Translations under genes and position numbers: made by a program
From: Eukaryota sp. GEM-RC1
Taxonomy: Eukaryota
Length of the DNA stretch: 64,000 nt
Direction: 5' to 3'
NCBI GenBank assembly: GCA_040285855.1
Contig: JAUFOQ010000005.1
Location: 2,108,001-2,172,000, forward strand
The notes under the pieces: model-generated
Told to the model about the DNA's origin: nothing
The model's database searches: none
Seen by the model: only the letters and a program-made list of their open reading frames with translations
In this document: in pieces, positions 6,641-62,989 of the stretch
Layout of the letters: the number at the start of each line of letters is the position of its first letter
How positions within the stretch are numbered: the first letter of the stretch is position 1

Positions 6641-6764
6641 AATTACTGGAATTCAACAGATTGATTCCATCCAAGGGAAACCCTTTCAAACATAAAATTC
6701 TTAACACCTCCTAATAGAGCAGATTTTCTAATGATTTTTGAAAAACTCCATTTCTTCAGCATCA

Positions 6765-11614: not shown

Positions 11615-11709
11615 TTAAGGTGGTAGTAAAAGATTTGTTGATAAAAAGTTTCTACTACTACTGTACCTGACTAATAGTACTGGTAGAAATATCAGAAAGT
11701 CACTTTTCA

Positions 11710-12958: not shown

Positions 12959-13141
12959 AGACATAGTTTTCTAGTTCTGGACGATGTTAGACTTTAGAGA
13001 GAAACTTATGAGAACAAGAAACCCGTACTATATCTCGAACAGGGGCAATTGTAAGTCTGACTTTGATATTAAAATAAATTTACACGACGTGTTGTTAACC
13101 GGAGTTTTGGTATGCTTAGGTATAAAAAAGACTAACTACTA

Positions 13142-13725: not shown

Positions 13726-13739
13726 TAGTAGAACAACTG

Positions 13740-18401: not shown

Positions 18402-18717
18402 TTTCTAATGTTTGAAACTCAAAAAAGAAAATGTTTCAGACCTGTATTAGTAACGCGATGTTCTCGTTTCTATCATATCTTCACATGTATCACGTCATCA
18501 TGTCACCTGATGACGTGTTATGGTGGTTTCTGTCTGTTTTTGCTGTCATGTAGTTATCCGACGTGTTTAGTCTGCAGTATTGATCACGTCATCAGATTTG
18601 ATGTTTGGTCAAGATTGTTATTACTGTTGTGTTATTATAACACATCAATGGTTTATAAATTATGTTCAGGTTTCGTTTGTTTTCAAATGATCTCCTTTTA
18701 AAAAGGACTTCTCCTCC

Positions 18718-22515: not shown

Positions 22516-22565
22516 TTTGTCTCACTGAGACTGTTTTCTAGTGAGACTAATTGAAACAATCAGTG
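22516..22565. mobile_element. Right-end remnant of the agtctcactgagact MITE family
   Basis: gtctcactgagact...gtgagactaattgaaacaatcagtg|ta, ~55 bp upstream of an LRR gene. Confidence 0.55.
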
Positions 22566-22620
22566 TACTACTACATGTAGTAGTACTGGTAAATATCAGA
22601 AAGTCACTTTTCCCTCATCA

Positions 22621-23714
22621 ATGGTCAAACCTCTCTCTGAACCTTTGTTGAAAAGAAGTCGTTCATCCCCTTCCAGTATCTCCTCTGTGATGTCTAACTG
22701 TGACGAACTGTCTGTATTGCCTTCAGCCACAGATTCTCCCTCTAAACGTGTCTGTGTTCAGCAGACTTTGTTGGTTCTGATTCATCTCCACTTGCTGAGA
22801 CGTCTACTCGTGGATCCTCTCGTCTTTGTTCAGGATCAAACTAATCGACATCTATATGGTTTGAAAACAGCGTTACCTGTATTCTTTGGACAAGTTGGCT
22901 ATGTAAGTAATCACTTCCTTGATTCTTCATGCCAAGCAGTTAAAGTGTTTTTGAAGTTCACACCTTTCATGCTAATCTTCATGACATTCCCAAACTAATT
23001 TCACTTGCATCTTTCTTTGGAGCAGATCAACAATCTGTTTTCTTGTACGCTCACAGAACCTTTCAAATTGAGAAAAGTCTTTTTTATTCTGGTATCATTA
23101 CAGGATTGAGAATCGAACTAAGGCAACCCTCTGATTTAGAATTTCTAAACAATTCTTCTTCTTTATTTCCCCGTCTTAAGCAGCTAGAAGTATCAGTGTT
23201 TCAACGCACCTCTGTTTCTATGTTATTGATTGAAGCGTTGAAAACCAATATTACAGTTACAAGTGTTAATCTGGGTTTCAACTATATTGGTGATGAAGGT
23301 GCCAGATCTTTGGCAAATGCATTGAAAGTTAATGCTTCTGTTACAAGTGTTAATCTAGGTGGAAACTCTATTGGAGATGAAGGTGCCAGATCTTTGGCAA
23401 ATGCATTGAAAGTTAATGCTTCTGTTACAAGTGTTAATCTAGTTGAAAACTCTATTGGAGATGAAGGTGCGAGAGCTTTGGCGGAAGCGTTGAAAGTTAA
23501 TGCTTCAGTTACAAGTGTTAATCTAGGTGGAAACTCTATTGGAGATGAAGGTGCGAGAGCTTTGGCGGAAGCGTTGAAAGTTAATGCTTCAGTTACAAGA
23601 GTTAATCTGAGTTTCAATTATATTAGAGATGACTGTGCTAGAGCTTTGGCAGATCTATTGCAAGTTAAACCTGTACTTAAAATAGGGGGAGTAAATCAAC
23701 TCAATAGACCTTAA
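22621..23714 (+). CDS. LRR family gene, copy 4; frameshift near 22950
   Basis: ORFs 22621-22998 and 23043-23714 are collinear with the paralogues. Confidence 0.8.
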
Positions 23715-26213
23715 CTAGTTCTATTTAATTGTTATACTTTTTGTTAAACTGTATAACGTAATGTGTTGAAAATCGAGTGTGAATTTGTATTATTTCTGAT
23801 GGTTTATTGTTGACTGTTTGGCTTTCATCCTCATAAATGTTGTATATGTTTACAGTGGACCTGAAGATTGAGTTCATCCTCAAGTCTTCCTTTCTGGCTT
23901 TTAGTTCCACGGGAACTTCAGATGTTCTCAATCTTACTAACATTATTTAAAAATTTTACGTTTCAACATTTGGTCATCCAAATGAGAACCTCCATCAATA
24001 GTGATCATAAATCTAATTTACTAATTATCAACAGCGTCGGTTTGTTGACTTTAATTTTTCACTCGAAATACAATCCGTGATTTAGATAGAAAAGCTTCTC
24101 CATAGAATCTAGTTATCTCAAAGGCAATTTTCGGTAAACATATTTCCGTATATCGACTACAGTTTTTGATTCTTTCGAAATAATAATCTTAAGCAGTATA
24201 GTGATGATACATTGATATCATAGAACAATTAAATACAGTAGACCCTTTATAAATATAAAAGAACCAAAATTAAGACTGTGTATCTAAATATCTACATGTA
24301 GTTTGTACCATGACTGCAAACATATAGTGCCTGAACGATATCATCATTCAAGGATGGTCATTTTGCAGTCACAACCCAGTGTTGTCCAAAATTATACTGC
24401 AATATATTTTCTGTCATAAATTGTTGAAAATACATTATTGTGATATATCACTATTTATCAATGATAAATAATTGATAGGAAAAAAAGAAAGAGCTATATT
24501 TTAATTAAGTAAGCAGACACTCCAAAGAAAAATAGCTCTCACAGCGTCGAAATTCTAGTACTACTGTTCACGTTCAAAAAAAGCTCACCACCAAGGGCCG
24601 AAGGAGGGAGCTTGGATCTGCGATCAGTCAGTCGAAGTCTCAACTTTTTTTTTGAGAACAGACCTACTACGGGGTTCGAAGTAGCTGATATGAAAAAAGA
24701 TCAACACAATCAGATGATTGATCAATGAAAACTTTGAAATATGATTCTTTTTCGTCACAGGAATAGAAGCTTTCAGGAGGAAGCACGTTTTCAACAGAAG
24801 AGATACAAAAATGTTTGAAAAGCACACTGAAATGTCTTTGTTTTATGTAATCACGTCAGAAAACAGAGGACAGAAATTATCAGAAATAATTGCAATAAAT
24901 ACTGATACGGCTATTTGCCACAAATAAATTAGGTGATAAATTATGTATTCATAGTAGGCGTTTTCTACTTAAACTGATTGAACTCAGTTTGTTTCTATTC
25001 AGATCAACTCATCAAGTGATGAATCGATTGATGTCTCCGAAAGTCGTAGTTCTTAAAATTGAAATATATAGTTTAAATAAACGAACATAACTAATAACGC
25101 TCAAGATTACATTAATTGCAATAACATCAACTTTTCATCGTGAAAACTGTTTGTTTGAATCAACTTGAAATTAGTTCGAACAAGGTTCATCTACTAGTAT
25201 TTTCTAAGATCCAATATTCTCCAATAACTTCAAACATAGAGATTCAATGTGGGAAGTAGAAGCAGTCAAATCTTGTAAACCAAGATTGTATAAGATGCAT
25301 TTGAAGGAAACAATGTCCGCCAGCATTCAAATAAGGACTTTAAAGGATTCACGAAGGTACCAGTCCAATTCATTACAGCTGGTGATTGTAGTTAATGAAG
25401 AAGACATGAAAGTAGGTGACAGTTTTGAGGGAGCTTGCCTCTCAACACAATTTTCCTTCGCTTACAAGACCAAAACAATGTTTTTAACAGGATCGAAAGC
25501 GAGGGAAGTGCAGATTATTCGGAATTGGGTCTGACAAGTACGTGAGAGTCGACTTAGCCGAAAGCTTTCTTTAAAGCTTTCTTTAATTCACATAATGGGA
25601 GCCATCACAGATGGTTTGGCATCAGGATACATATATTTGAATTGTGAAGGTTTCGGTATGGAAACCATCAAAAACATGAACGGAAGAAATCACAAATGGT
25701 GGCAAAGATGAAGCGAAAAAGGAAATCGGTTTATTTGGAGTAAGGTAATGGTTAAGGAAAGACAAAGAGTTGGGCAAGAAATATTTGTCATTGGGAGGGT
25801 AGACTGTACATGTATGGAGAGAGGAGTTAGTCACTGTTGACAGACATGTAAAACTCAGACATTTCACTGTTTACAGTCACACCTAAAATCGTATTCCCAA
25901 GATGACAACGAAAGGAGCCGATGATTGGTGATGAACAAGGGTAGGCTCATGTCTTAAGTTTACCCTTTGTTTCTTTTGCTGCCTAAGAAACAATACACTC
26001 TGTTATCTGCTCTTTCTGAAAGTCAAAAATAAAAAACCAATGTCCCGGTTAAGCTAGATTGGATGTGTGTGATTGTTGCAAAGATAAGGTATCGATCCTG
26101 GCTTATATATGGTACTGTAACTGATGGAAACGGGAAAAAATTGTCGTGCAACAAAATGATGTCGGAGTTTTCCAGAATGAACTCTTCGATTTGAAGTCTA
26201 TTTTCTTCCTCAA

Positions 26214-27536
26214 ATGTCTCACTATCTCTGTGATATTTGTCATGAAATTCTCAAGAATCCGGTAACTACTTGGTGTGGCCACACCTTTTGTATGTCGGAC
26301 TTGCAGGAATGGCTTGTTTCTCATAACGGATGTCCGATCTGTCGAGCTGAAGTGGACAAGTCAAGGCTGTGTCCTAACTACAAGTTGAAAGAAGCTGTTG
26401 AAGCCTTTGTTGCTGGTCAGGGTGAGACTATTCGTTTTGAGTGTGAGGAAGCTGCTGCCACTTGTTATTGCGCAGAATGCGACGCTGATTTCTGTGACGA
26501 CTGTTTTAACCCTGCTCATCGCCCCAAGTTGCTACGATCTCATGCTGCTGTCCCCCTAAATAAGAAGCATGCCTACATTGTTCCCAAGTGTCCCAGCCAC
26601 AGTATGAAGTCGTTAGAGTTGTTCTGCACCTTCTGCTCCGTTGCCCTTTGTTCCACGTGTGCTTTCCTTGGTGACCATGACCAACACAAAAGGAAATTAC
26701 TTCCCTTCGATGAAGGTCGAACCTCCATTGAAAAGAATATCAACTCCATTAATCAAGAGTTGTCGTTAGCCATTGAAAAAATATCACAGTCAGCTGAAGC
26801 TGCTATCCAGCAAGCAACAAGTGGTTTTGTCCAACTCAAAGAAAGTCTGACTTACCTGCTGCAAGAAACTATGTTAGACTCTGCTACCATTATGAATGAC
26901 TTACAATCTGGGAAACCTGTCATTTTTACGCCACACATCAGCGAGAAATTCACTACCACCACTTCAACCCTTCTCAACAACCAATCTGATGTCATTACCT
27001 CTTGAAATGAAGAACTTTGCTCCTTCCACTCCGATGCTTCTCGTCGTTTGGCCTCTCTTTCCGTTGATTCGGAGTCTAGTGTTGCTTCTGCTAGGCTTCT
27101 AGAAGTCCCTCCTTTACCAATCAAGTGTATTGAAAGTGTATGCTCTGTACAACAAGTTGAAGAGAAGAAACTTGTTATTGATTGGAGCAAGCTTAGCTCT
27201 AAGTTGAAGAGTTGTTATGATCAAATGGTGAGAAATGAGGTTTCTACGATCGATCTATGGAACAACTCAATTGGTAATGAAGGCGCTATTGCAATTGCTG
27301 AAGCTTTGAAGGTGAATTCTTCAGTTTCTACGATTTATCTACATAGCAACTCAATTGGTAATGAAGGCGCTATTGCAATTGCTGAAGCTTTGAAGGTGAA
27401 TTCTTCAGTTTCTACGATTTATCTACATAGCAACTCAATTGGTACTGAAGGCGCTATTGCAATTGCTGAAGCTTTGAAGGTGAATTCTTCACTTTCTATG
27501 ATCAATCTACATGTAAACATCTTCTCATCTTTGTAG
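26214..27536 (+). CDS. TRIM-like RING + 2 B-box + coiled-coil + LRR protein; in-frame TGA at 27003-27005
   Basis: CDIC..CGHTFC..CPIC RING; CAECDADFCDDC..H and CPSH..FCTFC..C..C..H..H B-boxes; ORF 27048-27536 is in the same frame and carries 3 LRRs. Confidence 0.8.
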
Positions 27537-45140: not shown

Positions 45141-45304
45141 TAGATGTATTTGTATCTCATTTGTTAATATTGATGATAGTTTGTATTTGTAAGAGTAAAT
45201 AAGAGGCGTCCTTTAACTTATTTGTTGTTTATTATATTTACTTCATTTCAACAGATATACATTAACTGAAATGAAAAACAATTTTATACTAATTTTAGAA
45301 CTAA

Positions 45305-46648
45305 TTAGGACCCATTGAGTTGTTCTACTCCCACTATTTTAAGTCTAGGATTAACTTTTATAGTCTCTGCCAAAGCTCTAACACCTTCATCTCCAAGAGA
45401 GTTGTCCCGCAGATTAATACTTGAAACCGTAGTGTTAACTTTTAACGCCTCTGCAAAAGCCCTGGCACCGTCATCTCCAATAGAGTTATCCTCCAGATCA
45501 ATACTTGTAACTGAAGCATTCACTTTCAACGCCTCTGCTAAAGCTCTGGCACCTTCATCACCAATAGAGTTATACTCCAGATCAATACTTGTAACTGAAG
45601 CATTCACTTTCAACGCCTCTGCTAAAGCTCTGGCACCTTCATCACCAATAGAGTTATACTCCAGATCAATACTTGTAACTGAAGCATTCAATTTCAACGC
45701 CTCTGCCAAAGCTCTGGCACCTTCAACCCCAATAGAGTTGGACTTCAGATTAACACTTGTAACAGAAACATTAACTTTCAACGCCTCTGCCAAAGCTCGG
45801 ACACCTTCAGCTCCAATAGAGTTGTAACTCAGATTTACACTTGTAACAGAAACATTAACTTTCAACGCCTCTGCCAAAGCTCGGACACCTTCAGCTCCAA
45901 TAGAGTTGTAACTCAGATTAACACTTGTAACAGAAACATTAACTTTCAACGCCTCTGCCAAAGCTCGGGCACCTTCAGCTCCAATAGAGTTGTAACCCAG
46001 ATTAACACTGGTAACGGAGGTATTGGTTTTCAACGCTTCAATCAATAACATAGAAACAGAGGTGCGTTGGAACACTGATACTTCTAGTTGCTTAAGACGT
46101 GGAATTAAAGAGGAAGAATTGTTTAGAAACTCTAAATCAGAGGGTTCCATTAGAACGATTCTCAATCCTGTAATTATACCAGAATAATTAAGAAACTTCT
46201 CCATTTCTAAAATTCCGTAAACGTCCAAGAAAACAGACTGTAGATCCACTCCAAAGAAAGAAGCAAGTGAAATCAGTTTGGGGAAGTCTTCATCATCGGC
46301 ACGAAAGGTGTGTAATTGAAAATAGACTTTAACTGCTTGGTATGAAGAATCAAGGAAGTGACTACTTACATAGCCAACTTGTCCAAAGAATGCAGGTAAT
46401 GCTGTTTTCAAAGCAGTGAGTTCAAGATTAGTTCGATTATGATTATTTCCGAGAGTATCCTTGAGAAGACGTCTCAGCAAATGAAGGTGGATAAGAATCA
46501 ATAAAGTCTGCTGAACATGAACACGTTTAGAGGAAGAAACTGTGGATGAAGACAATACAGATAGTTCGCCACAATTAGACATCACAGAGGAGATACTGGA
46601 AGGGGATGAACGACTCCTTTTCAAAGATTCAGGACAAGGTGTGACCAT
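45305..46648 (-). CDS. LRR family gene, copy 5 (intact, about 9 LRRs)
   Basis: Uninterrupted from MVTPCPESLKRSRS (ATG 46648) to the stop codon. Confidence 0.9.
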   Translation of the reverse strand: MVTPCPESLKRSRSSPSSISSVMSNCGELSVLSSSTVSSSKRVHVQQTLLILIHLHLLRRLLKDTLGNNHNRTNLELTALKTALPAFFGQVGYVSSHFLDSSYQAVKVYFQLHTFRADDEDFPKLISLASFFGVDLQSVFLDVYGILEMEKFLNYSGIITGLRIVLMEPSDLEFLNNSSSLIPRLKQLEVSVFQRTSVSMLLIEALKTNTSVTSVNLGYNSIGAEGARALAEALKVNVSVTSVNLSYNSIGAEGVRALAEALKVNVSVTSVNLSYNSIGAEGVRALAEALKVNVSVTSVNLKSNSIGVEGARALAEALKLNASVTSIDLEYNSIGDEGARALAEALKVNASVTSIDLEYNSIGDEGARALAEALKVNASVTSIDLEDNSIGDDGARAFAEALKVNTTVSSINLRDNSLGDEGVRALAETIKVNPRLKIVGVEQLNGS

Positions 46649-47396
46649 TGATGCTGAAGAAATGGGGTTTTTCTGCATTCTCTCAAACCAACTTCTATTA
46701 AAACCATAAACCATTCGAAATCTCCGGACGATAAGTGTGGTGAATCTATTTCTTCCATCATGAATCATTCTTGAAGACATCCTGATGCTTGTCCTCAAGA
46801 TGACGTGTTGTTCTGTTCAAAATAAATGCTAGAGTATATCATTGACCGACTCTTTTGTAATGGATTGTCCTTTTTGATGACGTGTCACGTCATTGAATAT
46901 CTAAATAATGTAACGATTCAACGTGACCTTCACATCCAAAACGATTTAACAGTTAGTGTTGAGTTCTTGGTTGAGAGTGACACAATATTATTCACAGTAA
47001 GTTTGTGGATTGAGAACCAAGATTCCCTCCAATTACTACAGGAGAATCAATTACGGTCACGTTTGCTGATGGTTATGTGTACTTCAAACCTTCTACGTGT
47101 ACCACTACTTTCAGTATCGAAAACCCTAAAAATTTGGTTTTCGGAGTGTATCTGTATTGGCATAATAAGGAATGGAAAGTGGAACGTATTTGATTTTTCG
47201 TTTGTCTTATATGATTTATAAAGGCATCTGATTGTAATTTAAATGAATAAAATTAGGAATTAGTTATCGTTTTAAAAATCCGTTAGAAATCGTCATCTGA
47301 ATCAGATCAAGTTGTATCACTATAATCATAACGAAAAAAATGGGGTTTATGATCAATCACTGAAATAGATGCATTTGCAGAAAATAAACAATATCA

Positions 47397-48495
47397 TCAT
47401 CTACTATCATATATGCCTTGATGTGAATACTTTACATCTACTTTGGTATTAACTTTCAATGCATCTACCAAAGCTTCGGCACCTTCATATCTAATAGAGT
47501 TATACTCCAGATCAACACTGGTAATTGCAGAATTAACTTTCAACGCCTCTGCCAAAGCTTCGGCACCTTCATCTCCAATAGAGTTTAAACTCAAATCAAC
47601 ACTTGTAACTGAAGCATTAACTTTCAACGCATCTGCCAAAGCTCTAGCACCTTCATTTCCGATAGAGTTGAATTTAAGATCAACACTGGTAACTGAAGCA
47701 TTCACTTTCAACGCCTCTGCAAAAGCTCTGGCACCTTCAATTCCGATAGAGTTGAGGTTAAGATCAACACTGGTAACTGAAGCATTCACTTTCAACGCCT
47801 CTGCCAAAGCTCTGGCACCTTCATATCCAATAGAGTTATCCCACAGATTAACACTTGTAATTGAAGTACTAACTTTCAACGCTTCAATCAATAACATAGA
47901 AACAGAGGTGCGTTCGAACACTTCTACTTCTAGCTGCTTAAGACGTGGAAACAAAGAAGAAGAATTGTTTAGAAACTCTAAATCAGAGGGTTCCATTAGT
48001 TTGATTCTCAATCCTGTAATTACACCAGAATAATTAAGACACTTCTCAATTTCTAAGCTTCCGTAAGTGTACAAGTAAACAGATTGTAGATATGCTCCAA
48101 AAGAAAGATGCAAGTGAAATTAGTTTGCGAAGGTGTTTGAGATCAGCATGAAAGGTGTGTACTGCAAAATACATTTTAACTGCTTGGAATGAGGAATCAA
48201 GGAAGTGATTACTTACATAGCCAACTTGTCCAAAGAATGCAGGTAATGCTGTTTTCAAAGCAGAAAGATGACGATTAGTTCGATCCTCAACAAAGTCGAG
48301 AGGATCCATGAGTAGACGTCTCAGCAAGTGGAGATGGATAAGAATCAACAAAGTTTGCTGAACATGGACACGTTTAGAGGGAGGAGGTGTGAATGAAGAA
48401 AATACAGACAGTTCGTCAGAGTTAGACATCGCAGAGGAGATATTGGAAGGGGATGAACGACTTCTTTTCAAAGATTCAGGACAAAGTGTGACCAT
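47397..48495 (-). CDS. LRR family gene, copy 6; frameshift near 48100
   Basis: ORFs 48046-48495 and 47397-48113 are collinear with the paralogues. Confidence 0.8.
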
Positions 48496-48810
48496 TGATC
48501 AAGAAATGAGGTTTGCACTTGGGATTAAAATCATGAACCCTCCGAATTTTCAAGTCACTAAAGCAACATTGTCAAAGAATCCTTTACAAGTGTTGTGTAA
48601 AGTACATTTAATATAGTATTCCTCTCTGAGCAATGAAAAATCACTAATGGTCATACATAAAGTTGAGTTCAGTGATGTTAAAGAAATAGAATACATCATT
48701 AGAAAATTCCGTAAATGTGTTGATTAACGCCTTTGTACAAGGAAAGAGATTTATAATGACTTAATTTCTATCTTACTACAACAAGTGCCGCAAATTACAA
48801 TACGCTAAAC

Positions 48811-49602: not shown

Positions 49603-50588
49603 ATGGCAGACCCATTGTCCTTACTTCCTCCTCCAACAATGCCTCCACCTTCTGCTCCTCTTGATTCTTCTTTATCTGATGTGGAACAACTTGAAATTCC
49701 TTCTATAGACACAGTAAATAACATGGACATCGAAAACGATATTGAACAGATTGCCGAGCTCGCAACTAGCCTTGAAAACCATCGTCTCACTTGTGAGCAG
49801 AAAGGAAAGTATCTCGAAGCCGAACAAGCCAAACTCAAACTTCAACAACTCCGTCATTTGATTGCTGAAAAGAAGAAAGATGATATACTGCTTCGTCAAC
49901 AAGAAGAAGTTGATGATCTTAGAGATTATCATTCCTCTGAACTGGACAATATCATCAATGATTGGGATCAAAAGGAACGTGAGCTTAATGCGCGGTTACT
50001 CAAGGAGTTGGAAGACATAAAAGCTCTACAGCGGGAGGAAGAGGACACGTTGACCACAGAACAGGAGCAACTTATTGAAACCTCTCGAGTCAGACCTAGC
50101 GCTGCTCTCCTAGATCTTCGTAAGATAGAGTTAACCCTTGCTAAGGCCAGTAACTACTCTGAAGCTGCTAAAATCAAAAGGACGCCGATCTACGTGAGGC
50201 TTTTGAGCTAGAGAAGACTCGTAATACACTTCGCACCACATTTCAAAGTAAGCTACGAAAACTACAAACAAAACATAAGAACCAACTCTCAGCCATGAAC
50301 CGCCGTTTTTCCACTGCAAAGTCTGAATTCGAGTGTAAAAGGAACAAAGCCCTGGACATTGCTCAAAAGAAACTACGCAACGCACTTCACGAACAGAGCC
50401 TACAACATGGATTAGAGGTGGTTGCTGTGGATAAGGCCTTTGGACTTAAACAGTCTAATCATAGTGAGGAAGTACATTCTCCTAGGGGTGGAAGTCCCAG
50501 ACCTAAGCCAAAGGTACGTAAACCATTGTCAGCGTCACCATTTGTTTCTTCTGGATCTTTTGTGAAAAAAAGCAAGAAGCGATATTAA
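49603..50588 (+). CDS. Coiled-coil protein of unknown function; frameshift near 50178
   Basis: ORFs 49603-50211 and 50295-50588; heptad-rich, with YLEAEQAK / NYSEAAKIK motifs. Confidence 0.7.
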
Positions 50589-52324
50589 TATTAATGCATC
50601 ATATTGTACAATAAATTAGCCTTTTTTAAGGAAATGAGTGGAATTAGTTTGTGATAAAAGAATGTTGTATTGTGTTGTGATTTTGGAAGGAAACACGAAA
50701 TGTCAGAATTTTGTAATAGATCTGGCCTTTTTTTAGCATCAGTTTTTTAACGTTACAATATTGCTAGCATGAGCAAGGAAAAATCATGTTAAATCTTATG
50801 GGGGATGTTTCTATCAGCTCTGCTTCATGTCTGATTACTCAAATTTACGATAATTTTACTTATAATATCTCTTGGTCATTGAGCGTGTGTATTCACTCAA
50901 GAATACACACCATGTATACAGACGGTGAAACTAACAATTGAACAGAGCTGTACCTACAGTTCCTAATTTATTTACTTCGATCTTTTAAATATGTAATAAA
51001 ATAAAAGAAACTGTAACAATTTTCTCTAAATCTAGATCTGCGTCACTGTGCCTTCCAAACTAGGTCCATGTCTGTAGAAAACTCGTCTAATACTAGTATC
51101 TTGTTCATTCTGAATTAATCCAGAGCTTCTTCACCCGTATAGTACCAAGACTTCAACAGAACTGAAATGGTTCACGTGATTTACAAAAGAAGCGGACGTA
51201 TGTACTGAGGCAAACACACAACAAGAAATTGCAGGCTAATTGATTTGTAATCCAAAGATGTTGCTCACCTCAATCACAAAATTTATTCGAAATTAGTATT
51301 TGTTCCATTTGCTATTTCTATTTTTGGTGGTATTGACATGGCTTCTCAGTTTTTAACTGACTTTGGATCTATGTGTAAGTCTCAGAATAAGAGATTTAAC
51401 TTATCAATTTGGCATAACCCTTTGATTTTTTCTCTGTTCCGTTCAATTCCTAAGTTTATTTAATCAATTATCATAAAATTGTATAAGAACTGTAGTAGTA
51501 TTAACCAGGCATTTTCTATGTCTAGTGTTTGATAGCTGTTATTTTGATATGTATTTTTGCCCCTTCATCAATGAACAGTTTGTTATTAACACCCAGCGAT
51601 AGTACTGGATGTTGTTCACTGATACCAAATTTTAGTTGTTTAGTATAATTCACTTGGTATACATAAATATTGTAGATATTCATCAGAGTGATCTTTAGCA
51701 GGGTGAGTAGTAACGATGTGAGACATAATTAACCATAGTGACGAGAAAAGTGTTCTCTTTGTTGTATGATTCTAGTTCAGAAGTTGACCAGGAGCCTTTT
51801 CAGGACATTGTGGTGATTTGGCGATAATCGTTTTTGTAGGAGGCTGAAGATGCACTTTATTTCTGTTATTTCTGTTATTTCTGTTATTATTTGTGTTGGT
51901 TTCGTTCAAAGTTGCTTGTTTTAGAACATGTACAATTTGCGGCGGCAAAATTTAAATGTATATCGATTCAACTATTGAATCTTCCTGATTGCCAGGACAA
52001 CAGATACGACAACAACAGTATACGCCAAAATACAAAAATATTAATTTGAATATTTGTTTTTCAATTTTAAATTACAGTATTTTATGAATCGATATGTATT
52101 CTTTATGTATTTTTTTTCAAAACTATTTGTAATTTCCTTGAGTGATCCATGTGCTCCTTTCAGTTCTTGTAGATCCCCTGGGTGGATTCCTGTGTTTACC
52201 TCTCCCGCTGATTGTTCTTTTCGTGTCTCTTCAGTCTTTGACAGTTGCTTTGCAAAAAATGATTTGTAGCTTTAAGTTATGTGGACATTTGACGTTGAAG
52301 TCCCACATCCTGAAATACTATACC

Positions 52325-52640
52325 CATATTTTCTCGAGGCGTTCCTTTGTTTATACTCTTCTTTCCAACTTTTCATCAACCAAACACGATCACGTGTTTA
52401 AGGATATGCCAAGAGAACATATTTTCTCGAGGCGTTCCTTTGTTCTACCTTTGTTACATGGTTTGTTTACTCACTTTTCGTCACTCAAACACGATCACGT
52501 GTTTAAGGATGTGCCAAGAGAACATATTTTCTCGAGGCGTTCCTTTGTTTATACTCTTCTTTCCAACTTTTCGTCACTCAAACACGATCACGTGTTTAAG
52601 GATGTGCCAAGAGAACATATTTTCTCGAGGCGTTCCTTTT
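52325..52640. repeat. Tandem repeats (units of 93, 105 and 93 bp plus a partial fourth) with internal hairpins
   Basis: catattttctcgaggcgttcc starts at 52325, 52418, 52523 and 52616; each full unit carries aaacacg-atca-cgtgttt. Confidence 0.9.
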
Positions 52641-52789
52641 TCTCTCATGGATTCTCGAATTATTCTATGTTGTTTCTTCTTTTGTTGTTGTTAGGGAAAG
52701 TCTTGAGTTCGTCTCAGTCGTTGTTTTGTTTTTACGATCATAAAGTCAGCACTTGTATGGTTTTTCTACAATCAAGTCTCCAGTCATCA

Positions 52790-52843
52790 CAATTTCTCCG
52801 TGATTTGACTATGGACGGAGACATAGAGTCAAACCCTGGTCCT
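52790..52843 (+). other. 2A-like ribosomal skipping (StopGo) peptide
   Basis: QFLRDLTMDGDIESNPGP matches the D(V/I)ExNPGP consensus and has the typical L..L...GD upstream context. Confidence 0.85.
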
Positions 52844-55800
52844 TTTGTCACTGAGGAAGGAATCACTACATTGAAGCCCTCCGTATGGCTCGATGATTCA
52901 GTTGTTGACTTTTATGGTGAGTACATCACCGAGAGCAGCGAGTTATGCCAGTTTTTCCGTATCGGGAATCTTCATGCTGCAGTGAGTTATGGCGATTTTG
53001 ACACATTAGCTCTTGAATTTCGAAATGTTCAGAATTCAATGCGAGAGACTGGGGAAAGGTTGTTATTTATTCCAATAAACGATGGTGTCTTTCGTGGTAC
53101 AGCAACTCATTGGACTCTACTAGTTTGTGACATTGATAGTACGTCATTTTTTCACTTGAACCAATGTTCACTGACAGTTCAATTCAACTTTCATTTGACG
53201 TTTTAACTCAAAATGATCAAGTTGTAAGTACATTACAGGAATATTTGCGTCATTTTGGAAATTTTTCCAATTTAGGAAAGCTCCCAGTTATTAAACAGCA
53301 AACTCCCAACGACTGTGGACCATATATCTTAATGTATATGCAACGATTTGTTCATTTGGCATCAACATCAGACAATTTCCAGGAAATTATGTCTCAAGTC
53401 CAAGGTTATGTCGATTATGATGCTTTTAACATGAGAAAACAAGTTCTAAATCTATTAGGAACTACTCATCCTACGCCTTTTGCTATACTTGCTGTAAGTA
53501 TTGTCAATGAGTGCTTTTCAAACAGCACTCAAGCACATTCAACCCCTTCTCAACAACAAATGAATAGATCTGCTGGTACTTCTGAAATAGCCGAACATCC
53601 AACACTAATGTCATCTCCTGATGAAACTCGACAAGTGCCATTGACTACTCCCAATCAACTTATAGACTCAAATCGTACAAGAAAAACTCGTCAATCTAGA
53701 AAATATCCTCGAAAAAGAAATTTTCTCAAAAATATCACATTATACAACATCAACATCGTGGAATTCTAACACAATCTCGTCCTAGACCACTTTTACTAAG
53801 ATCTGATCAAATTGACTCACTAAAACCAAATGTACTGCTTCATGATTCTGTCATTGACTATGTTGGTCAGTACATTGCTGAAAAGAGTAATCTATGCGAG
53901 TTCTTTGAAGTGGCCAACATTCAAGATGCAATCAATCTTTCACAATATAACATAATGTTTGAACAATTTAGAGAGGTTCAATTATCAATGGAAAAATCAA
54001 GTAAAAGACACACTAAAAAGTGTAAGAAACGTTTCTTGTTTATTCCAATACATGACGGTCTCTTTGGTACAACAGCCACTCACTGGTCACTGTTAATCTG
54101 CGATATTGAAAACAAACAATACATTTCTATTGACTCAATGTGTACAGAAGATCAACGATCTCAGTTTTCTAACACTTTATCACGGATTGACACTGTCATT
54201 TCACAATTACAGCAATTCCTGTTTGATATGGCAAATTTCAGCTACATAGCTAGAGTACCAGTTCAACAAGTCCAAACTCTCGTTGACTGTGGTCTATTTA
54301 ATCTAATGTATATGAATAAAATTGTCGAGAGTGAATCAACATCAACAAATCTTTTCGAAATTCTGTCTAAAGTCTCTAATTGTGTTGTTTATAATGCATT
54401 AGAAACGAGAAAACAAATACTGTCTCAAATCGTTACTACTCACCCTGACGAAGATCACCCTGATGAATACCGACAATATGTATGTACTCATGCCCAAGGT
54501 ATTTTAAATGAGTTTTATTCTGATGAGATTGAATCACCTGTTAATCAACCTGTACAGTGTCAATCTGAAAGTTTAACTCCTGAAACAATGGTAGATGATA
54601 TTAGTTACAAGGAAACGGTGTCAAAGCTCACTTATCAAAACTTTCTCAAAAGTTTACCTGGAAATTTATCTAACCGGAAAAGAAACGTCTTTTGAAGTTA
54701 AAAATGATTGAACAAGCGCTGGAAGAAGCTGAAGAATTATTTCAAGAAAGTTATCATAACTTTAGTCGTCCAGAGTTGACAGATCTTCCAGAAATAAATT
54801 TACTAACTCCAAAGATAAATGTTGCTGCTTGTGAGAAACTTGATACAGCAGAAACAGCAGAAACAATTGAGTCATCTGAAACCACGGAAACAACAGAAGC
54901 AACAGAAACAATTGAGTCATCTGACACCACTGAACCAACAACAGCAACAGGTAATAGAAAAACAACAGTTGCCAAAAGGAAAACCACCAAACCAAAAGCA
55001 AGTGGAGTATCAAATGCGACAAAGAGTTTGAAACCTCCTAAAAAGCCAATGATTGAGTTTCTGAAACATTCCCAATTACCAAATAACTCTAATCATTGTT
55101 CAATATTGTCTTTTGATATTGAAACTAGAGAAATTGATCAAATCCCTGCAGAGACAGTTACACAGGAGTTGGACGATCAAAGAAAGAACGAGAATGAATC
55201 TCTCAAAATGAAAAGTGATGCAGAAAAAGAAGTTTGGATTCAAAACCAACAAGTTTTTATGATTTCTGGAGTGTTTGGTCATTTTATAAAAGATCAATTT
55301 TACCTTCAAGACAATTTTGTTGCAACTTTAGAGTTGACTCAAGAATCTGATGTTGAACTGCCACCTGATTGTAGAAACCTTCAATTTTTTGAAAACGAAA
55401 AACAGTTACTAGAGTTTTTTGTCAACTATTTGAATGATAAAAATCCCTCAGTTTTAACTGGATATAACATAACTGACTTCGATAATGTTGTTTTAGGCAA
55501 CAGGATTGTTACACTTGGAGTCGACTTTCCAGAACCAATGCTAGATGAAACAACTAAATCTCATTTATCATCTCTATGGCAAAATGTTTGTTCTGAATGG
55601 GCTGGTAGAATTGTCTGTGATTCATACGTTTATGCTAAGCAATTTATTGTTTCAAAATGTTCAAAGTCTTTAAGATCATTAAGTTGGTTTTTATTAAACG
55701 AATCTAAAGGACGTCTTCATGACGGATTGCACCACTTATTGCCTATTGATTGTGTTGATGAAAGACCTCAAGAAGTTGTAAACTATTGCTTCAAAGATAG

Positions 55801-57585
55801 TGTAATAGCATTGAAGTTGTTTTTATTGTTTCAATCAAATAAAATCGTTCACCCAACTTTTGTAACACATAAAACTACACTAAAGTCTATTGTCAAACAT
55901 TTTGGATTAACGCTATTACTCGATTATTATGCTCAATTGGTTCACAAACTTAGAATGCACACTTCCTATTGCTTGAAGCTGTTGTTATTACACATGGATA
56001 AGAATGGTGAAAAATTACCTTTAATTACAAGGAAAGAAGTAGAACATATTCAAACTCTGTTAAGATACATCTCTGCTGAGCATCATGAGATTGAATTATG
56101 TAATCAAGGACGACCTTCCACATATAATGAACACTTGAAAAACTTTGTTTTAGAAGAATACAAACAAGTAATGCTCAACAATGGAGGAATTCCACTCTTT
56201 CCAGCTGCTCATTCCTCTCGGCTTATGGCAATGGTTGGTGAAACTATTAAATCGAATTTGGACACCAATATTAAAATGCGATATGCTCAATACATTGACA
56301 AATTTATTAATGTTTATTTTCAAAAGACTGATCAAGAAGAAAAAATGTCAAAAAAAGAACAGTCTGTTTTTCGTTGGAGACTTAGACAAGTTAAAAATGT
56401 CTTTGTTGAAGGTAACAGAAATGACATTCCAAAGACCCCTGCAGAAATAAAACAATTTATTCAAAGATGTAATACAGAAATTCTTCAAGACGACAGTAAT
56501 TAGAAGTTTGAACATTGCAGGTAAAATTAAACTTCTATGGGCAGCTAACGACTATGTTGAAGGATTGTTTAGAGATAAATATTTTATTGATGTTCTCATC
56601 CCACCATCAATTGATATTCAAAATGCTAATGGTGTTTATAAAGAGAAAGTCGTTAAATCAAGTTCGTGAACATCCTCAATCCTTTATTAAATCTGCGATT
56701 CAAATAAATAACTATCTTGAAAGTGAAGGAGCAAGTGCTTACAATGTAATACCGATTGTTCGTCACGTCACACCAGGTTTCTTTGAAATAGACACACAAG
56801 GTCTTTTGGGGAATATTACGTTCCACTTTGTCAACACAACAAGTGAATGTCAAGAAGAAAATGTCTGAGTTGAATACAAAAGATGAAATTCTCCTGCTGA
56901 ACAAAATCAATTCTGGTCTTACTTTTTCAACTTTAATCGTCCATTTATAAAGAAAGGTTATAAGTTTAACAATACCATTAAACTGATGGTTTCTCTGCCT
57001 GTGTTGAACTGACCAGAGAGGACTGTGTGGGAATGTCCTTTAAACCAGTCAGTGCAAAGTTCTCCAGTAAAGAAGAATATGTTCAAGACTATGATGTTGA
57101 AGAGTTTTCATTGAAAACAAAAGTTTTTATTGATCCTGGAAAAACAGATTTACTTTATTTTTGTTCAGAGAGAAGTAAATAGGCCATTTGCTGAACAAAA
57201 AGCCCGTGAAATGAGAAACAGAGAATACGAGTGGTTAAGATTGACAGAGACAGAATGGTCCAGATGGTCAAGGGTCCATCAAAAGTTTAGAAGGGGAAAG
57301 AAAAAAGAATTCATTCTCCGAGATGGAAAGACAGTTGAAGAAGAAGAGTCAACATTGTCCATAGAAAATTCGAAATCGACTCTTTATGACACATTCTATG
57401 ACTATGTGAGTTCCAAGCTTACAGTTATTGAATCAACATTTGATTTCTGCTGTTTGATGATATGGCGCATTCAAAAATGCAAAGATACGTCCATATTCAA
57501 AAAACAGAAAGTAAGTTGTTGAAAAATATGACTGCAAAAGGATGGAATAAAAATGACTGTGTATTGATGTTTGGTCACAATGGTA

Positions 57586-58817
57586 AAACCACCTACGGCG
57601 ATATCACTGGCGTCTGCGCTAATCAGCACGCGTTGGTCCCTGTCTGGTAGACTGAGAGGCATGTGATTGATGATCTTATTTCTGATTGTCTCAAAATTAG
57701 ATTGATGAAGAGGTGTCCATTTTACTGAACGAGCGTTGTTCTTGACTAAGTTTATGATTGGAGCCAGAAGGTCTGATGCACCTGGAATAAAGTCTTTTAT
57801 GTAGTTAATCGAACCCACGAAGCTACGAACTTCTTTAATTGTGGTTGGTACGGGCAACTCTAGGAGAGCTGTGATACGCGATGGGTCAATACTGCGTGTA
57901 TTGTTAACGAACTTACTGCCCAAGATCTTTAGTGGGTGTTTCTTTGTCACAAAATGGCATTTGGGTAGGCCAAGGTTGACTCTACGTGTTAATGCTTTAG
58001 TCAGAACGAATCGGATTCGGCTCATAAATTCGTCGAATGTACGGCCTACTATGATGATGTCATCGATGTAGATGGATATGCTCTCATGGTTGAATATTTC
58101 ATACATCAAATTTTGAAATATCGCAGGGACGTTCTTGAGTCCAAAACAAGCTCTTTTAAATCGGATGGCTTTGCCAGGGATTACTAGAGTTGTCTTGTCT
58201 CTGTCCTTTTCTGCGAGGTTCAATTGCCAGAAGGCTTTCGGAAGATCCAAGGTCGCTATGAAATTAGCTTCACTCAGAAATTCCAAGATGTCGATGATCT
58301 TTGGAAGATTCGGTTCGACAACTAGGGTCAATGCGTTGATTCCATCGGAACCACTGAAGTCTCCCGTAAGGCGGGGCTTACGTTGATCGGGATAGACCAC
58401 CAGTACTACTGGTAAACTGAACTGTCCGTTGGGAGTTGTTAACTCAGCAAAGTCCTGCCGGACATGTTCATCGAAAATCTCTTCGGCAATCCGTTGTTTC
58501 ATTGGATTGAGCCGTCGAGGTTTCCGTCTCACAGTGGACTCTTCATTGTCGAAGTCGATCGCCATGGGAGGACAATCGATGCCGTCTTTGTGAGGAGCTG
58601 TTGAAAATATTGAGGAAAACTCCTGAAGCAGGCTCAATAAGCTCTTAGCTCTGTTTTCATCATCTAGTTTGATAGTGCTACCTGAATCGAATACATGTTT
58701 ATTAAAGTCTACAATGTTATCAATAGAATGGCTACTGGGAGGTTGTATGATACGTGAGTCGAACTCAGACTCATCGTTCACGGTGGCCAGGATGGCCTTG
58801 TCAATCCGGATGACTAG
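57586..58817 (-). CDS. pol: Reverse transcriptase + start of RNase H (truncated)
   Basis: LDLPKAFWQ, FGLKNVP, YIDDII, VRSFVG, ADAS; same frame as gag-pro across a TGA. Confidence 0.88.
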
Positions 58818-60386
58818 TCAGTCTTCGGTCAGTAGTCCTAACTGTTTCATCAGATCGATTCCCAATAATAGTTTGTTGGATCCTGGTATTATTGGTAACG
58901 TCTTATCCACATGTGTTAGGTACGCGATACTACTGGTATCGAAGGTCAAGATGCCCTGGGCGCTACCCAAGGACCGGGACTCAACATTGTTTGCGGATGT
59001 GAAGCGAACATTTTTGTTGACGGGCGTCATGTTACACTTCGTAGCCAGGTCTTGTGTAATGACGGACATGGTTGCTCCACTGTCCCAAAAACCTTGAACC
59101 GGAATTCCGTTAATCATCAGTTTGCAGCTGAGAAGAGGGAGTGGGTTCTGACTACTTATGCTGAATATGGAATTCAGGATTTGTGAGTTCGTATTACCAT
59201 TGGCAGAACTGATGTTGCTCAATGGGTTTAAGAATTGATTGGTTTCAATCAAACTGGGATTTGATTGACTAGATGTGATGTTATCAAATATATCTGCAAG
59301 GCTGTTGATATGTGCTGAATTTGCATTGAAATATTTAGATTTTTTATGGGACGAGTGTTTCTTGCTATGACTACGAGATGGTTTTGAGGTGGAACTCTTG
59401 GCATTACGTTGTTCTAAAGGAAGCTCACTACGTTTACATTCGGGATCCGGACATTGGAGGATGGAATGGCCCTTTTCGCCACAAAATCTACAGGCGTCGG
59501 GGTCTTTATCTTCAGATCGAGGCTTCTTCGAGGGTGGCTTGGAGCTGGATGCCGATCTACGAGATTTACCGGGTTCACTAGACTGAACCGGGATGAGAGG
59601 ACGGGAAGTCCAGGATTTGGGGAGGTCTTCCCAGGTAGCTGTATCTCTAAGATGAGCTATTTCGGCAATTCGTTGTTCGTTCTGCACGTTGGCTGGAGCA
59701 GATTTCCATCTCTCGCACCAAGTGTCATAACGTTCTTTCACTTCGAAGATTAATCCTTGGATATCCGGAGAATCTTGGTAGAGAGGCCAACATTCAATCC
59801 AGATGGATACGATGCTTAAGTTTGACAGAATAGCTTTAACAGTGGCTTTGTCTGGTAACGCAGTCATAGGCTTATTCTTCAGCTTTATGGCCTGGGTTCT
59901 TTGTAGAACGCGGTGCAACCGTGATATGAAATCACTCCATCGCTTTTCAGGGTCTGTGATGGACCACTTCATCTTGATCTTGTTCAGCTCATTCAAGGCA
60001 GTGGTCTCGTCTGGGAACTGAGTACGCTTGAGGAGAGCTAACCATAAGGTGAGAGGGTTCTTACCATCCCACTCCTTTTGCATAGACAGCTGGGTCTGTA
60101 AGTCGAACTTCACAAAGCGTTGGATGTAAGAAGGATCAGCCTGTGCTGCAGCCGTTCGACAGAAGTCGAAAAAATGTCTTGGCCATCCGAATGGAGCCCC
60201 TACCAATGTTTTGTGGTTAGGGTCCATCACGCTCCATTGAAGAAAGTCTTGAGCAAATTCAATGATGTCGTGTGGTTTCAAACTCGAAAGCATCTTGGGT
60301 TGAAGCTTAGAGTTCTTCATAGAGTCGAGGGGGACTTTCTGTTGGAAAGTGACAACACTATGGGACATTGGGGAACGTTGTTCCAC
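58818..60386 (-). CDS. gag: Gag (CCHC knuckle) + aspartic protease
   Basis: CRFCGEKGHSILQC; FWDSGAT..I; LLLGID. Confidence 0.85.
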   Translation of the reverse strand: MEQRSPMSHSVVTFQQKVPLDSMKNSKLQPKMLSSLKPHDIIEFAQDFLQWSVMDPNHKTLVGAPFGWPRHFFDFCRTAAAQADPSYIQRFVKFDLQTQLSMQKEWDGKNPLTLWLALLKRTQFPDETTALNELNKIKMKWSITDPEKRWSDFISRLHRVLQRTQAIKLKNKPMTALPDKATVKAILSNLSIVSIWIECWPLYQDSPDIQGLIFEVKERYDTWCERWKSAPANVQNEQRIAEIAHLRDTATWEDLPKSWTSRPLIPVQSSEPGKSRRSASSSKPPSKKPRSEDKDPDACRFCGEKGHSILQCPDPECKRSELPLEQRNAKSSTSKPSRSHSKKHSSHKKSKYFNANSAHINSLADIFDNITSSQSNPSLIETNQFLNPLSNISSANGNTNSQILNSIFSISSQNPLPLLSCKLMINGIPVQGFWDSGATMSVITQDLATKCNMTPVNKNVRFTSANNVESRSLGSAQGILTFDTSSIAYLTHVDKTLPIIPGSNKLLLGIDLMKQLGLLTED

Positions 60387-61783
60387 AACCGAATTGGAAG
60401 CTGTCGGAGCCAGGGGGGAAGGAGGTCAGTTGAAGGGGAGGTTGATGTCGTGCTAAGATCACTCAAGGAGAGACCAAGCTGGTGGACATCAGGTGGTAGA
60501 TTTGATTGATCGGAAGGTGATTGATAAAATTCGGAAATTTCTTTCACTTTAGACTTCGGATTTGCATTTGCTCTACGAGCGAGTTCTTCTTCATATTCCA
60601 CTCGAGCTCGGTATTTCAATGCTGTGGGTTGGATAACCACTTCATCAGTCGGGATTATGGTGCTCTGGATAGCTTCGGGGAGCGGAGAGGAGTTGTGATC
60701 TGATGGGCGAATTCTTTTGTCCAAATTCGACTTTTCAAAAGTTCGACCTGTCAATACTTCCTGGACCTTTTCCCAGCATTTTTCACGGGAATCATGGTTT
60801 CCGGTATACTAGGGTCCATCAGGATAGTATGGGGTTTTCCTCGGTCGTCAAGGATGGTGTAAGTTCCTTCAAGGGGGAGAACTTCGTCGTTAAATTGTCT
60901 CCTGATCAGTCTTATGGCTGCCTGAGCTGGTCTAGGATAGCGGTTTCTTAGGTAGTCCGTTCTATCTTTGGCTCCATGAAGAAAATCATGTACCATTTGG
61001 CGATCTGATGGGAACATACGATGTTCTACTCGTTTTAGTTCCTCTTCTGTTAACCCTTGTTGAAAAGTTCCAGGAGGGGCCTGGAATAACTCTGAGGAAC
61101 CCGTCTAAGTGGACCTGACAGGATAAAACCCTTGGTTTGAGGAGTAGGGACGGAACCTGCAACCTCGGAAGTTGCTGGAAGGGCGGAACCTTCAACAAAG
61201 AGGGACTTTGAAGGGCGGAACCTTCTAAAGGGATGTAGTCGTTCCTTGGAGGGCGGGACCATCCGAGAAGAAACGACTCATTGTGGGGTCCTGGGACCTT
61301 GGTGATTGCGGGGGCACTCTGTCACAAGGCGCAGCACCACATGGGACACAATAATCATTGTTGTCTGTAGACATGGGAGAAGGTAAAGTAAATTTATTTT
61401 AAGGGTACTGTACCAGTACTAACAGGCAGAACCTAAAACATCTCCGATCAAGTAGAGGTGTTGGTTGGAGAAACTTCTTTAAGAGAAATGGTTATAACAT
61501 AGTTTTGGTAGACGAGAGTTACACGTCTTCAAAGTGTCCTACTTGTTGGAAGCCAGTTAAAGTGTTCAAAGAAATCAGTAATCCAAAACCATGGAAAAGA
61601 GAGAAGAAACCTCTGGTAAAGTGTCACGCTTTGTTGAGATGCAAGTCCCAAGAATGTAGAGAAGAATGTCATGGTAGCGGCAAGATTTGGAATCGTAACC
61701 AGTTAGCATGTATCAACATCAAGACCATTGTGGAGCATCATTTGGAGCGGGGTCTAGGAGTTAGAGCCAGTTATTTGTCATAG

Positions 61784-61899
61784 TCATAGTCATAGCATTT
61801 ATTTACTACAGTGAATCTGTAGCATTATTGAATCTTAGAATTTGTCAGACATCTTCTCAGATTCATTTGAATTTCAAGAAAATGGCCAAAAGTACATTG
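61784..61899 (+). ncRNA. Candidate Fanzor omegaRNA scaffold / right element end
   Basis: Directly after the Fanzor stop; hairpins ctacag-tgaat-ctgtag (61806-61822) and tgaatcttagaa...ttctcagattca (61829-61865); called by position and analogy only. Confidence 0.45.
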
Positions 61900-62989
61900 T
61901 GTTGCCGTAAGGTCAACGTTGATACAAATGGAAAGAAGAAGTGTTTATTGTTGCTAGAGATCCTTAAGAATAGATGCCACGTCATCAGAGGTGAAGATAT
62001 CTACTAGGTATCGTTATCTTCACTAACACTACATTTTCCCATTTCTTTTGAAGCTGTGCAGAGAACTTATTTGAACTCATAAAGGGGGTTCAACAAACGC
62101 TTGGGACCTGGATACGAGTCATTTGCATGAGACAGGAAGTGAATTTCGTGTTTTACCTTAGAAGGACAATCCCGAGCTAAATGGCCATTCTGATGACACT
62201 TAAAACAAGTACCATTAGCCAGATTGCGAGATCTATCCGAGGAACGAGACTTTGTGCCAACTTGACGGGAGGGATCGCAGTTTTCGGCAGGAATCCTTGT
62301 AGACTTATTCCATGAGGCTACTCTGGAACAATCAAGCAACTCATCCGTTGCAGTATCTACTAAGGTAGAGAAGTCAGGGAAGACCTCATCGCGGATCCGA
62401 GCTATCAACGATTTTTGCAAGCCCATGGGAAGGATCCCCTTGGCAAATCGTGTCATAAAAGCTGAGTCAGGCAACTTCAGTCCGGAAGCCCGGCTTTTCG
62501 CCTGAAGGAAACGCCTCAGGTAGCCTGACATTCGTTCACGGACATCGCCTTCTCGGACATCAACTCTAATCTCAGATATCGCAGAGTGGAATTCCTCGTA
62601 CGTCGAGAACGAGGTGGTGGATCTCAGGTGATCCAAGAAAACCTCTTCAGAGGCATCAACCCCAGGCTTAGTAAGAATCAAAGACTCTAGTAAGAAGGGG
62701 TCGACGAGGAGCCTTGGCGGAACAAGGTCCTTTTTCGGGGTGACGGAAGAGTACACTTTCCACTGTTGTAGGAACAGGAGTACGTCTTCTACTTTCATGG
62801 AAGAAAGTGAGGGGAGAACTACGCGGGTAGAAAACATCTGCAGTGAGGGCCAATAATTATTGTTGCCGTAAGGTCAACGTTGATACAAATGGAAAGAAGA
62901 AGTGTTTATTGTTGCTAGAGATCCTTAAGAATAGATGCCACGTCATCAGAGGTGAAGATATCTACTAGGTATCGTTATCTTCACTAACA
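61900..62989 (-). mobile_element. Gag-only miniature LTR retroelement (1090 bp)
   Basis: Identical-looking 129-bp LTRs at 61900-62028 and 62861-62989 (TG..CA); 4-bp TSD attg; polypurine tract aaaagaaatgggaaaa on the minus strand before the 3' LTR. Confidence 0.93.
62067..62837 (-). CDS. gag: Gag with CCHC zinc knuckle
   Basis: CFKCHQNGHLARDC; intact ORF with no pol. Confidence 0.85.
   Translation of the reverse strand: MFSTRVVLPSLSSMKVEDVLLFLQQWKVYSSVTPKKDLVPPRLLVDPFLLESLILTKPGVDASEEVFLDHLRSTTSFSTYEEFHSAISEIRVDVREGDVRERMSGYLRRFLQAKSRASGLKLPDSAFMTRFAKGILPMGLQKSLIARIRDEVFPDFSTLVDTATDELLDCSRVASWNKSTRIPAENCDPSRQVGTKSRSSDRSRNLANGTCFKCHQNGHLARDCPSKVKHEIHFLSHANDSYPGPKRLLNPLYEFK

Follow-up and report, generated by a model that had tools for sequence, protein, structure and literature searches.

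A 64,000-nucleotide (nt) stretch of the Eukaryota sp. GEM-RC1 genome (contig JAUFOQ010000005.1, positions 2,108,001 to 2,172,000 of the forward strand; hereafter the window) carries a gene in which a 3'-5' exonuclease of the family B DNA polymerase (PolB) type is joined in one reading frame to the RNA-guided nuclease Fanzor1. The fusion is real and conserved, and the window copy is dead. The family occurs as many copies with scattered locus tags in three proteomes of the Skoliomonas group of metamonads, and its full gene order is a 2A-like motif, one or two Ulp1 domains, a linker, the exonuclease and Fanzor1. An original prediction, made from the window sequence alone, had described a 603-amino-acid (aa) open reading frame (ORF) uniting a complete DEDDy exonuclease with the N-terminal lobe of a Fanzor protein.

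This ORF runs for 603 aa from a TTG codon at 54692, or 599 aa from an ATG at 54704, to a stop at 56501-56503. As predicted, all three exonuclease motifs are intact within it: ExoI (FDIET, 55112-55126, Asp at 55115), ExoII (GYNITDFD, 55460-55483) and ExoIII (YCFKD, 55784-55798). Pfam DNA_pol_B_exo1 matches the ORF (E 5.6e-15), confirming the exonuclease identity, and the domain shows the features of PolB-type DEDDy enzymes, namely DxE in ExoI, NxxxFD in ExoII and YxxxD in ExoIII on a DnaQ-like fold. A helical insert of about 30 residues follows ExoI, and a helical segment replaces the PolB β-hairpin. Across 44 aligned rows, many of them fragments and one (P0014) mis-cut, ExoI DxE is kept in 29, the ExoII Asp in 32 and ExoIII YxxxD in 28; nearly all rows that cover the motifs have them intact. 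Metal-dependent 3'-5' activity on DNA would be expected of a PolB-type exonuclease. The expected lack of a polymerase palm is borne out, with no Pfam match to the DNA_pol_B polymerase domain in the window ORF or the relatives scanned, and with the downstream region of an intact relative folding as Fanzor1. A truncated DNA polymerase is rejected on the same two grounds.

The part of the ORF downstream of the exonuclease is the beginning of Fanzor1. Residues 378-568 match SpuFz1 (8gkh) with E 0.0025, or 3e-17 when the family profile is used, in agreement with the Fanzor assignment made earlier. The strand that opens standalone Fanzor1 proteins, Y-x-T/S-V/I-K-T-S-L, is the strand after ExoIII in the window ORF, starting 25 residues beyond that motif. 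The distance from the ExoIII Asp to the Lys/Arg of the first strand is 25 residues in 12 of the 12 rows shown, whose exonucleases are only 16-49% identical. Fanzor1 proteins are marked by DPG in RuvC-I, TDG in WED and an alternative Glu directly ahead of the zinc finger (PMC10711439; here and below, published systems are described from the portions of the sources available to us). The window has all three, in separate frames (Table 1), and nine relatives have them together in one chain. The pieces in the window align to one intact relative, P0004, at 40-53% identity. The predicted in-frame fusion and the identity of both domains thus stand, but not the limitation to an N-terminal lobe, as intact relatives carry the whole of Fanzor1.

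The RuvC triad of the window reads Asp (DPG), Glu and Asn (WNRN), with Asn in 18 of the 18 family proteins that show the motif. Fanzor proteins were described as having a C4 zinc finger followed by RD (PMC3627910). The zinc finger is present here; in place of RD, the window and all 18 family proteins that show the motif have RN, which differs from that 2013 motif and agrees with active GtFz1. An Asn occupies the third RuvC position in GtFz1, and the D606N substitution raises SpuFz1 activity (PMC11423790). The D-E-N triad is therefore not a sign of a dead enzyme, and a nuclease-dead (TldR-like) Fanzor, considered on account of the RD-to-RN change, was dropped.

Structural modeling of P0004 extends the assignment over the entire chain. 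The AlphaFold2 (AF2) model, built on a 40-row alignment that includes standalone Fanzors (predicted local distance difference test score, pLDDT, 82.1), replaced an earlier 25-row model that was poor in the Fanzor C-terminal half (pLDDT 59). Its top seven Foldseek matches are all Fanzor1 structures (E 1e-26 to 3e-16), with a template-modeling (TM) score of 0.78 on SpuFz1. In VIA-align, residues 1-246 superpose on the exonuclease domains of Pol epsilon, alpha and delta (Z 18-19, root-mean-square deviation (rmsd) ~2.6-3.2, ~186 aligned), and residues 248-940 on SpuFz1 18-631 (Z 26.8, rmsd 4.1, 562 aligned); only one or two residues separate the two folds. The P0004 sequence also matches SpuFz1 at 5e-24, independently of the modeling alignment. 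The region equivalent to residues 385-603 of the window ORF, for which a PolB polymerase domain or another fold had been the alternative, folds as Fanzor1 in this intact relative.

A word-based search returned seven proteins, of which six are assigned by name to Eukaryota sp. GEM-RC1 or TZLM3-RCL. Scanning 1.84 billion representative proteins in full with HMMER gave 66 matches, in 10 of which the best stretch spans the junction; eight of these come from GEM-RC1, TZLM3-RCL or TZLM1-RC (the last of which we take to be S. litria) and two are ordinary polymerases. The other matches cover one part, polymerases the exonuclease and standalone Fanzors the downstream lobe, alongside family fragments. 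Two profile searches, in which the top candidates alone were scored, yielded only TZLM3-RCL proteins and one weak Ulp1 match. ExoIII is followed by the WED motif in 28 of 128 collected proteins, and in nine of the 128 a single chain combines a complete Fanzor1 with the full set of exonuclease and RuvC motifs. Scans of viral_contigs and metagenome_contigs, which catch close relatives only, revealed no related loci. GEM-RC1 and TZLM3-RCL are described as Skoliomonas, free-living metamonads with assemblies from Nanopore reads (PMC11316075). It is very improbable that the join arose by chance or as an assembly artefact without function. The dead state of the window copy and several frame shifts that resemble homopolymer errors, one in a neighboring host gene, would fit such an origin, but the same junction occurs in three genomes, in families down to 22-30% identity and with conserved catalytic residues, and these independent copies effectively refute it.

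In the window, the ORF is a fragment of a longer, decayed gene: a 1-nt loss at ~54678 sets its upstream limit, and its stop comes from a 1-nt insertion at ~56501. The uninterrupted reading frame that had been predicted is thus genuine for the exonuclease-Fanzor join, but does not represent the gene. The Fanzor part has seven frame breaks, in the interval 56501-57473. Two ~10-nt deletions and the insertion of a retrotransposon (Table 1) are real damage, and attributing all breaks to sequencing errors is rejected on this account. Some of the frame shifts are likely assembly errors: four in the gene (53147, 53712, 54678 and 57473) lie in homopolymer runs of 4-6 bases, the background chance of a nearby run being 26% for at least 4 bases and 9% for at least 5. 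For three shifts, relatives have the identical end (P0010; P0020; P0003, P0005 and P0027). Introns are not needed to account for the breaks after 56500, because relatives with an unbroken chain align over these sites once single-base or ~10-base indels are allowed. Outside the gene, a host coiled-coil gene at 49603-50588 is interrupted where an A run near 50176 seems to have lost 1 nt, which suggests uncorrected homopolymer errors in the assembly.

The sequence relationships are most simply read as a single fusion event, after which the two halves were long inherited together. In the exonuclease tree (31 rows), seven fused rows form one clade against 24 polymerase domains (support 100/99, the bootstrap being not fully settled), and in the Fanzor lobe tree (18 rows), eight fused rows form one clade against 10 standalone Fanzors (Shimodaira-Hasegawa-like approximate likelihood ratio test, SH-aLRT, 100). 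Rows for near-copies, and for polymerases whose exonuclease span is unclear, were omitted. Both trees largely split the window, P0004 and P0035 from P0038-P0103, P0041-P0107 and P0039-P0045, and the identities of the two halves correlate (rho 0.77, 10 non-independent pairs). The fused exonucleases form a clade of their own, for which the tree places no donor polymerase.

Upstream of the exonuclease, the window follows the gene order of two relatives, spread over several frames. A single chain with the 2A-like motif, Ulp1, a basic linker, the exonuclease and full Fanzor1 is found in P0115 (1846 aa, two Ulp1 domains) and P0014 (1571 aa, one Ulp1 domain). The first Ulp1 domain of the window has lost 1 nt in a T6 run near 53147, which splits it; the linker is unbroken with the upstream part in P0001, P0008 and P0031. 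2A-like motifs occur in 11 related proteins, five of which have His instead of Glu. The GD(V/I)ExNPGP consensus is established for 2A and 2A-like peptides occur in non-long terminal repeat (non-LTR) elements, the motif by itself being no proof of activity (PMC3708506). In other families (P0041, P0107, P0091), the 2A-like motif leads straight to the exonuclease without Ulp1. The N-terminal cargo therefore varies between families, and the exonuclease-Fanzor junction is fixed at 25 residues. The gene models of two exonuclease-Fanzor families, P0101 (residues 1-820) and P0122 (1-1300), open with a DEAH/Prp43-like helicase (20% mutual identity), and P0123 has a helicase piece (78-189) right before the 2A-like motif and Ulp1; no helicase match was found in the window. 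The helicase may be part of a larger element or reflect gene-model joins. About 600 nt upstream of the gene, a 66-nt segment (51660-51725) is an inverted copy (88%) of the end of the second Ulp1 region (54421-54486).

Table 1. Features of the fusion gene and its insertion in the window
Feature	Position	Strand	Evidence or remark
Three tandem 93-105-nt repeats (family D13), upstream of the 2A-like motif	52325..52643	+	Possible 5' region of the element
Putative 2A-like (StopGo) motif, DGDIESNPGP	52814..52843	+	Motif match; fits GD(V/I)ExNPGP
First Ulp1/C48 protease domain (HWTL ... QQTPNDCG)	52850..53472	+	Pfam Peptidase_C48, E 2e-4 on second half
Second Ulp1/C48 protease domain (HWSL ... DCG)	53780..54450	+	Pfam, E 1.3e-10
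Lys/Thr-rich linker with 9-nt repeats	54451..55093	+	Cut from upstream ORF by 1-nt loss, A run near 54678
PolB-type DEDDy 3'-5' exonuclease	55094..55846	+	D 55115, E 55121, D 55481, Y 55784, D 55796; Pfam, motif rows, model
Fanzor1 first WED strand and REC lobe	55850..56500	+	In frame with exonuclease; SpuFz1 match, profile, strand motif, model
Fanzor1 middle: rest of REC, WED with TDG at 56982, RuvC-I DPG (D 57132)	56501..57590	+	Broken by seven frame shifts
Ty3/gypsy-type LTR retrotransposon inside Fanzor, cut off within RNase H	57591..61424	-	Aspartyl protease, RVT_1, RT_RNaseH_2, weak zinc knuckle (Pfam); junction 57591 approximate
Fanzor1 C-terminus: RuvC-II E 61514, C4 zinc finger, RuvC-III WNRN (N 61697), stop 61781-61783	61425..61783	+	Cas12f1-like_TNB, E 7e-5
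Candidate omegaRNA scaffold, three hairpins	61784..61899	+	z -1.46; 15/200 shuffles fold as well, no clear excess over chance

Our leading, still tentative, proposal is that the intact protein may act as a cut-and-trim homing nuclease, in which the exonuclease trims a 14-17-nt non-homologous 3' tail so that repair copies the element. The original prediction had likewise suggested processing of Fanzor-cut DNA ends, with trimming of the guide RNA as its other option. All steps of this mechanism beyond the anatomy are inferred. The guide RNA would direct Fanzor to cut a site that lacks the element, and the sequence that it names would be the flank at the right end of the element. In the non-target strand, the Fanzor1 cut falls 14-17 nt from the target-adjacent motif (TAM), after 16-17 nt in SpuFz1 and after 14-17 nt in GtFz1 (PMC10432273), and the fragment on the TAM side of the empty site would bear a 14-17-nt 3' single-stranded tail where the donor allele has the left end of the element. 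Such a tail, having no donor counterpart, would have to go before synthesis or ligation; the tethered exonuclease would clear it, and the host would repair the break by copying the element in. Through the 2A-like motif, the protease-exonuclease-Fanzor chain may come free of a product encoded upstream; Ulp1 may act on SUMO-regulated repair or silencing. Homing-like copying has been proposed for TnpB and Fanzor (PMC10432273). Tail trimming is ranked first because PolB proofreading domains act at such steps, the T4 exonuclease 43Exo in intron homing (PMC2988022) and Pol delta proofreading in tail removal during yeast repair (PMC9477423).

Several observations weigh against this proposal. Standalone Fanzor1 proteins have no exonuclease domain, which implies that host enzymes can do the job and that the exonuclease is at most an aid. 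Between the window flanks, no inverted repeat (score 21 against a shuffle mean of 21.8) and no direct repeat stands above shuffles, and no target duplication, element ends, empty sites or guide RNA are established for the family; the case for mobility is thus built on the number of copies and the scatter of their locus tags. Only one of the three genomes, with two families, supplies intact full-length chains, and RuvC-II and RuvC-III are unseen for the more distant families. Exonuclease residues are lost in single copies, with E to K in P0018 and altered ExoII and ExoIII in P0043. In the true polymerases P0084 and P0094, a weak alignment (E 2e-4 and 5e-4) extends 40-50 residues beyond the exonuclease. 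The predicted TM (pTM) score of the P0004 model is 0.63, and the reach of the exonuclease to the tail is an assumption.

The same anatomy could serve other ends. The exonuclease might instead shorten the omegaRNA at its 3' end to the length of the guide, a role that we consider quite improbable. Fanzor guides extend 14-20 nt beyond the scaffold at its 3' end, and some DEDDy enzymes are RNases. Trimming of the guide is less likely because the domain is of the PolB type, all its close matches being DNA-polymerase proofreading domains, and because it joins Fanzor at the first WED strand, on what Fanzor geometry suggests would be the TAM side, away from the guide 3' end; unfused Fanzor1 guides, moreover, mature in yeast without such a domain (PMC10432273). 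Alternatively, the exonuclease could chew Fanzor-cut ends beyond rejoining, so that the protein would destroy rival elements, viruses or element-free alleles under RNA guidance, much as in engineered Cas-TREX2 fusions. The retention of both active sites in a tightly joined chain would suit destruction, and engineered exonuclease fusions exist in the literature. The nearest unfused look-alike clusters in the ESM Atlas are mostly giant-virus Fanzors, a lead only given the low scores (0.76). Destructive cutting nevertheless seems unlikely, as no guide array or repertoire is seen and the scattered copies with variable N-terminal cargo resemble a selfish element and not a fixed host gene.

A further alternative is that the exonuclease would serve transposition or replication intermediates of the element itself, independently of the Fanzor cut, with the fusion being mainly a polyprotein economy; such a role has been proposed for the DEDDy domains of Dada transposases and rotifer retroelements. 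DEDDy domains occur in Dada and in rotifer LTR and Athena elements (PMC3706591, PMC5408684), and the family has polyprotein traits in its 2A-like motif and proteases, two gene models adding the DEAH helicase. We regard this role too as improbable: cargo varies between families but the junction length never does, only one or two residues lie between the folds, and no fused transposase or reverse transcriptase is present among the 10 profile-search matches. Cut-and-trim homing could be carried further, to a new class of large eukaryotic element with a polyprotein of DEAH helicase, 2A, Ulp1, exonuclease and Fanzor1 and without its own transposase, spreading by RNA-guided cut, trim and copy. We give this extension little credence; if true, the element would be a natural version of the engineered Cas-exonuclease fusion. 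No transposase was matched by Pfam in 32 window ORF scans or in the proteins of relatives, although a partner may exist in trans.

Among known systems, Fanzor1 itself (SpuFz1, PpFz1, GtFz1) shares with the family the whole fold (Z 21-27), TDG, DPG, the alternative Glu before the C4 zinc finger and RuvC-III, and GtFz1 shares Asn as the third catalytic residue. In contrast to Fanzor1, the family adds an N-terminal, active-site-complete exonuclease of 245 residues, upstream Ulp1 domains and a 2A-like motif; its intact gene models span 940-2524 aa against ~600-850, and neither inverted repeats (window flanks) nor a transposase (Pfam scans of window ORFs, relatives) were found for it. Transposons that carry Fanzor (Helitron, Mariner, MuDR, hAT, Sola, Crypton, IS607) have their own transposase and terminal signals; the window scans gave no transposase match and no inverted repeat between the flanks. 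The proofreading domains of Pol delta, Pol epsilon, archaeal PolB and RB69/T4 gp43 have the same fold and ExoI-III motifs, whereas the family is without palm, fingers and thumb, has the helical insert after ExoI and has the β-hairpin region replaced.

Mobile elements with a DEDDy exonuclease of their own, for which 3'-end processing has been proposed, include Dada transposases and rotifer Juno, Vesta and Athena. The Dada domains lie inside a DDE transposase and the rotifer domains are RNase D-like separate ORFs; in the portions of the sources available, none is joined to an RNA-guided nuclease. T4 td intron homing, which involves I-TevI with 43Exo and DexA, resembles the proposed mechanism in that the cut lies away from the insertion site and a PolB exonuclease affects homing, but its enzymes are separate and protein-guided, whereas one RNA-guided chain is proposed here. 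APE-type (apurinic/apyrimidinic endonuclease) non-LTR retrotransposons (Ingi, L1Tc, CR1, L2) similarly have GD(V/I)ExNPGP near the start of a long ORF; in the family, the 2A is followed by Ulp1, exonuclease and Fanzor, not by APE and reverse transcriptase.

The fusion is apparently an undescribed variant of Fanzor1. We found no description of a natural Fanzor-exonuclease fusion in the accessible portions of the literature, subscription journals and Repbase being outside its scope. The string 'exonucl' is absent from the main text of PMC3627910, PMC10530073, PMC10711439 and PMC11423790 and from the searchable supplements of PMC10530073 and PMC10432273; Figure S1B of PMC10530073, a picture of Fanzor architectures outside the scope of this search, may bear on the point. 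The biological role of Fanzors has been stated to be unknown (PMC10432273). A second nuclease fixed onto Fanzor1 gives a direct handle on the fate of cut ends, with each active site switchable. At ~940 aa, the fusion is also a naturally occurring RNA-guided endonuclease-exonuclease with a rigid join, of the sort that genome editors have to assemble themselves. The range of Fanzor1 is extended to a metamonad lineage whose records were not found in the searchable text of the 2023 surveys.

At the 3' side of the gene, Rfam gives no match at 61784-61899, its sole match in the window being at chance level inside the retrotransposon. Three tandem TCATAG repeats (61778-61795) lie over the Fanzor stop codon. 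A small LTR element (61900-62989), with two near-identical ~130-nt LTRs, a target duplication (ATTG) and, as its sole ORF, a gag-like one with a zinc knuckle, sits in or next to the presumed omegaRNA and right end.

The neighboring genes are eukaryotic by Pfam (cathepsin C, RING/B-box, leucine-rich repeat (LRR), YIF1). An expanded gene family with 84-nt (28-aa) leucine-rich repeats occupies 3385-13000, 22500-23750, 27000-27530 and 45300-48500 on both strands. A repeat of more than 1 kb is present in two copies, 95-98% identical, at 4923-6100 and 13185-14335, and a 144-nt inverted repeat pair (75%) lies at 51441-51584 and 21682-21824; one ORF scanned from these repeat pairs had no Pfam match. 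Pieces of a pyridine nucleotide transhydrogenase gene (AlaDh_PNT, PNTB_4TM) are found at 18691-20030.

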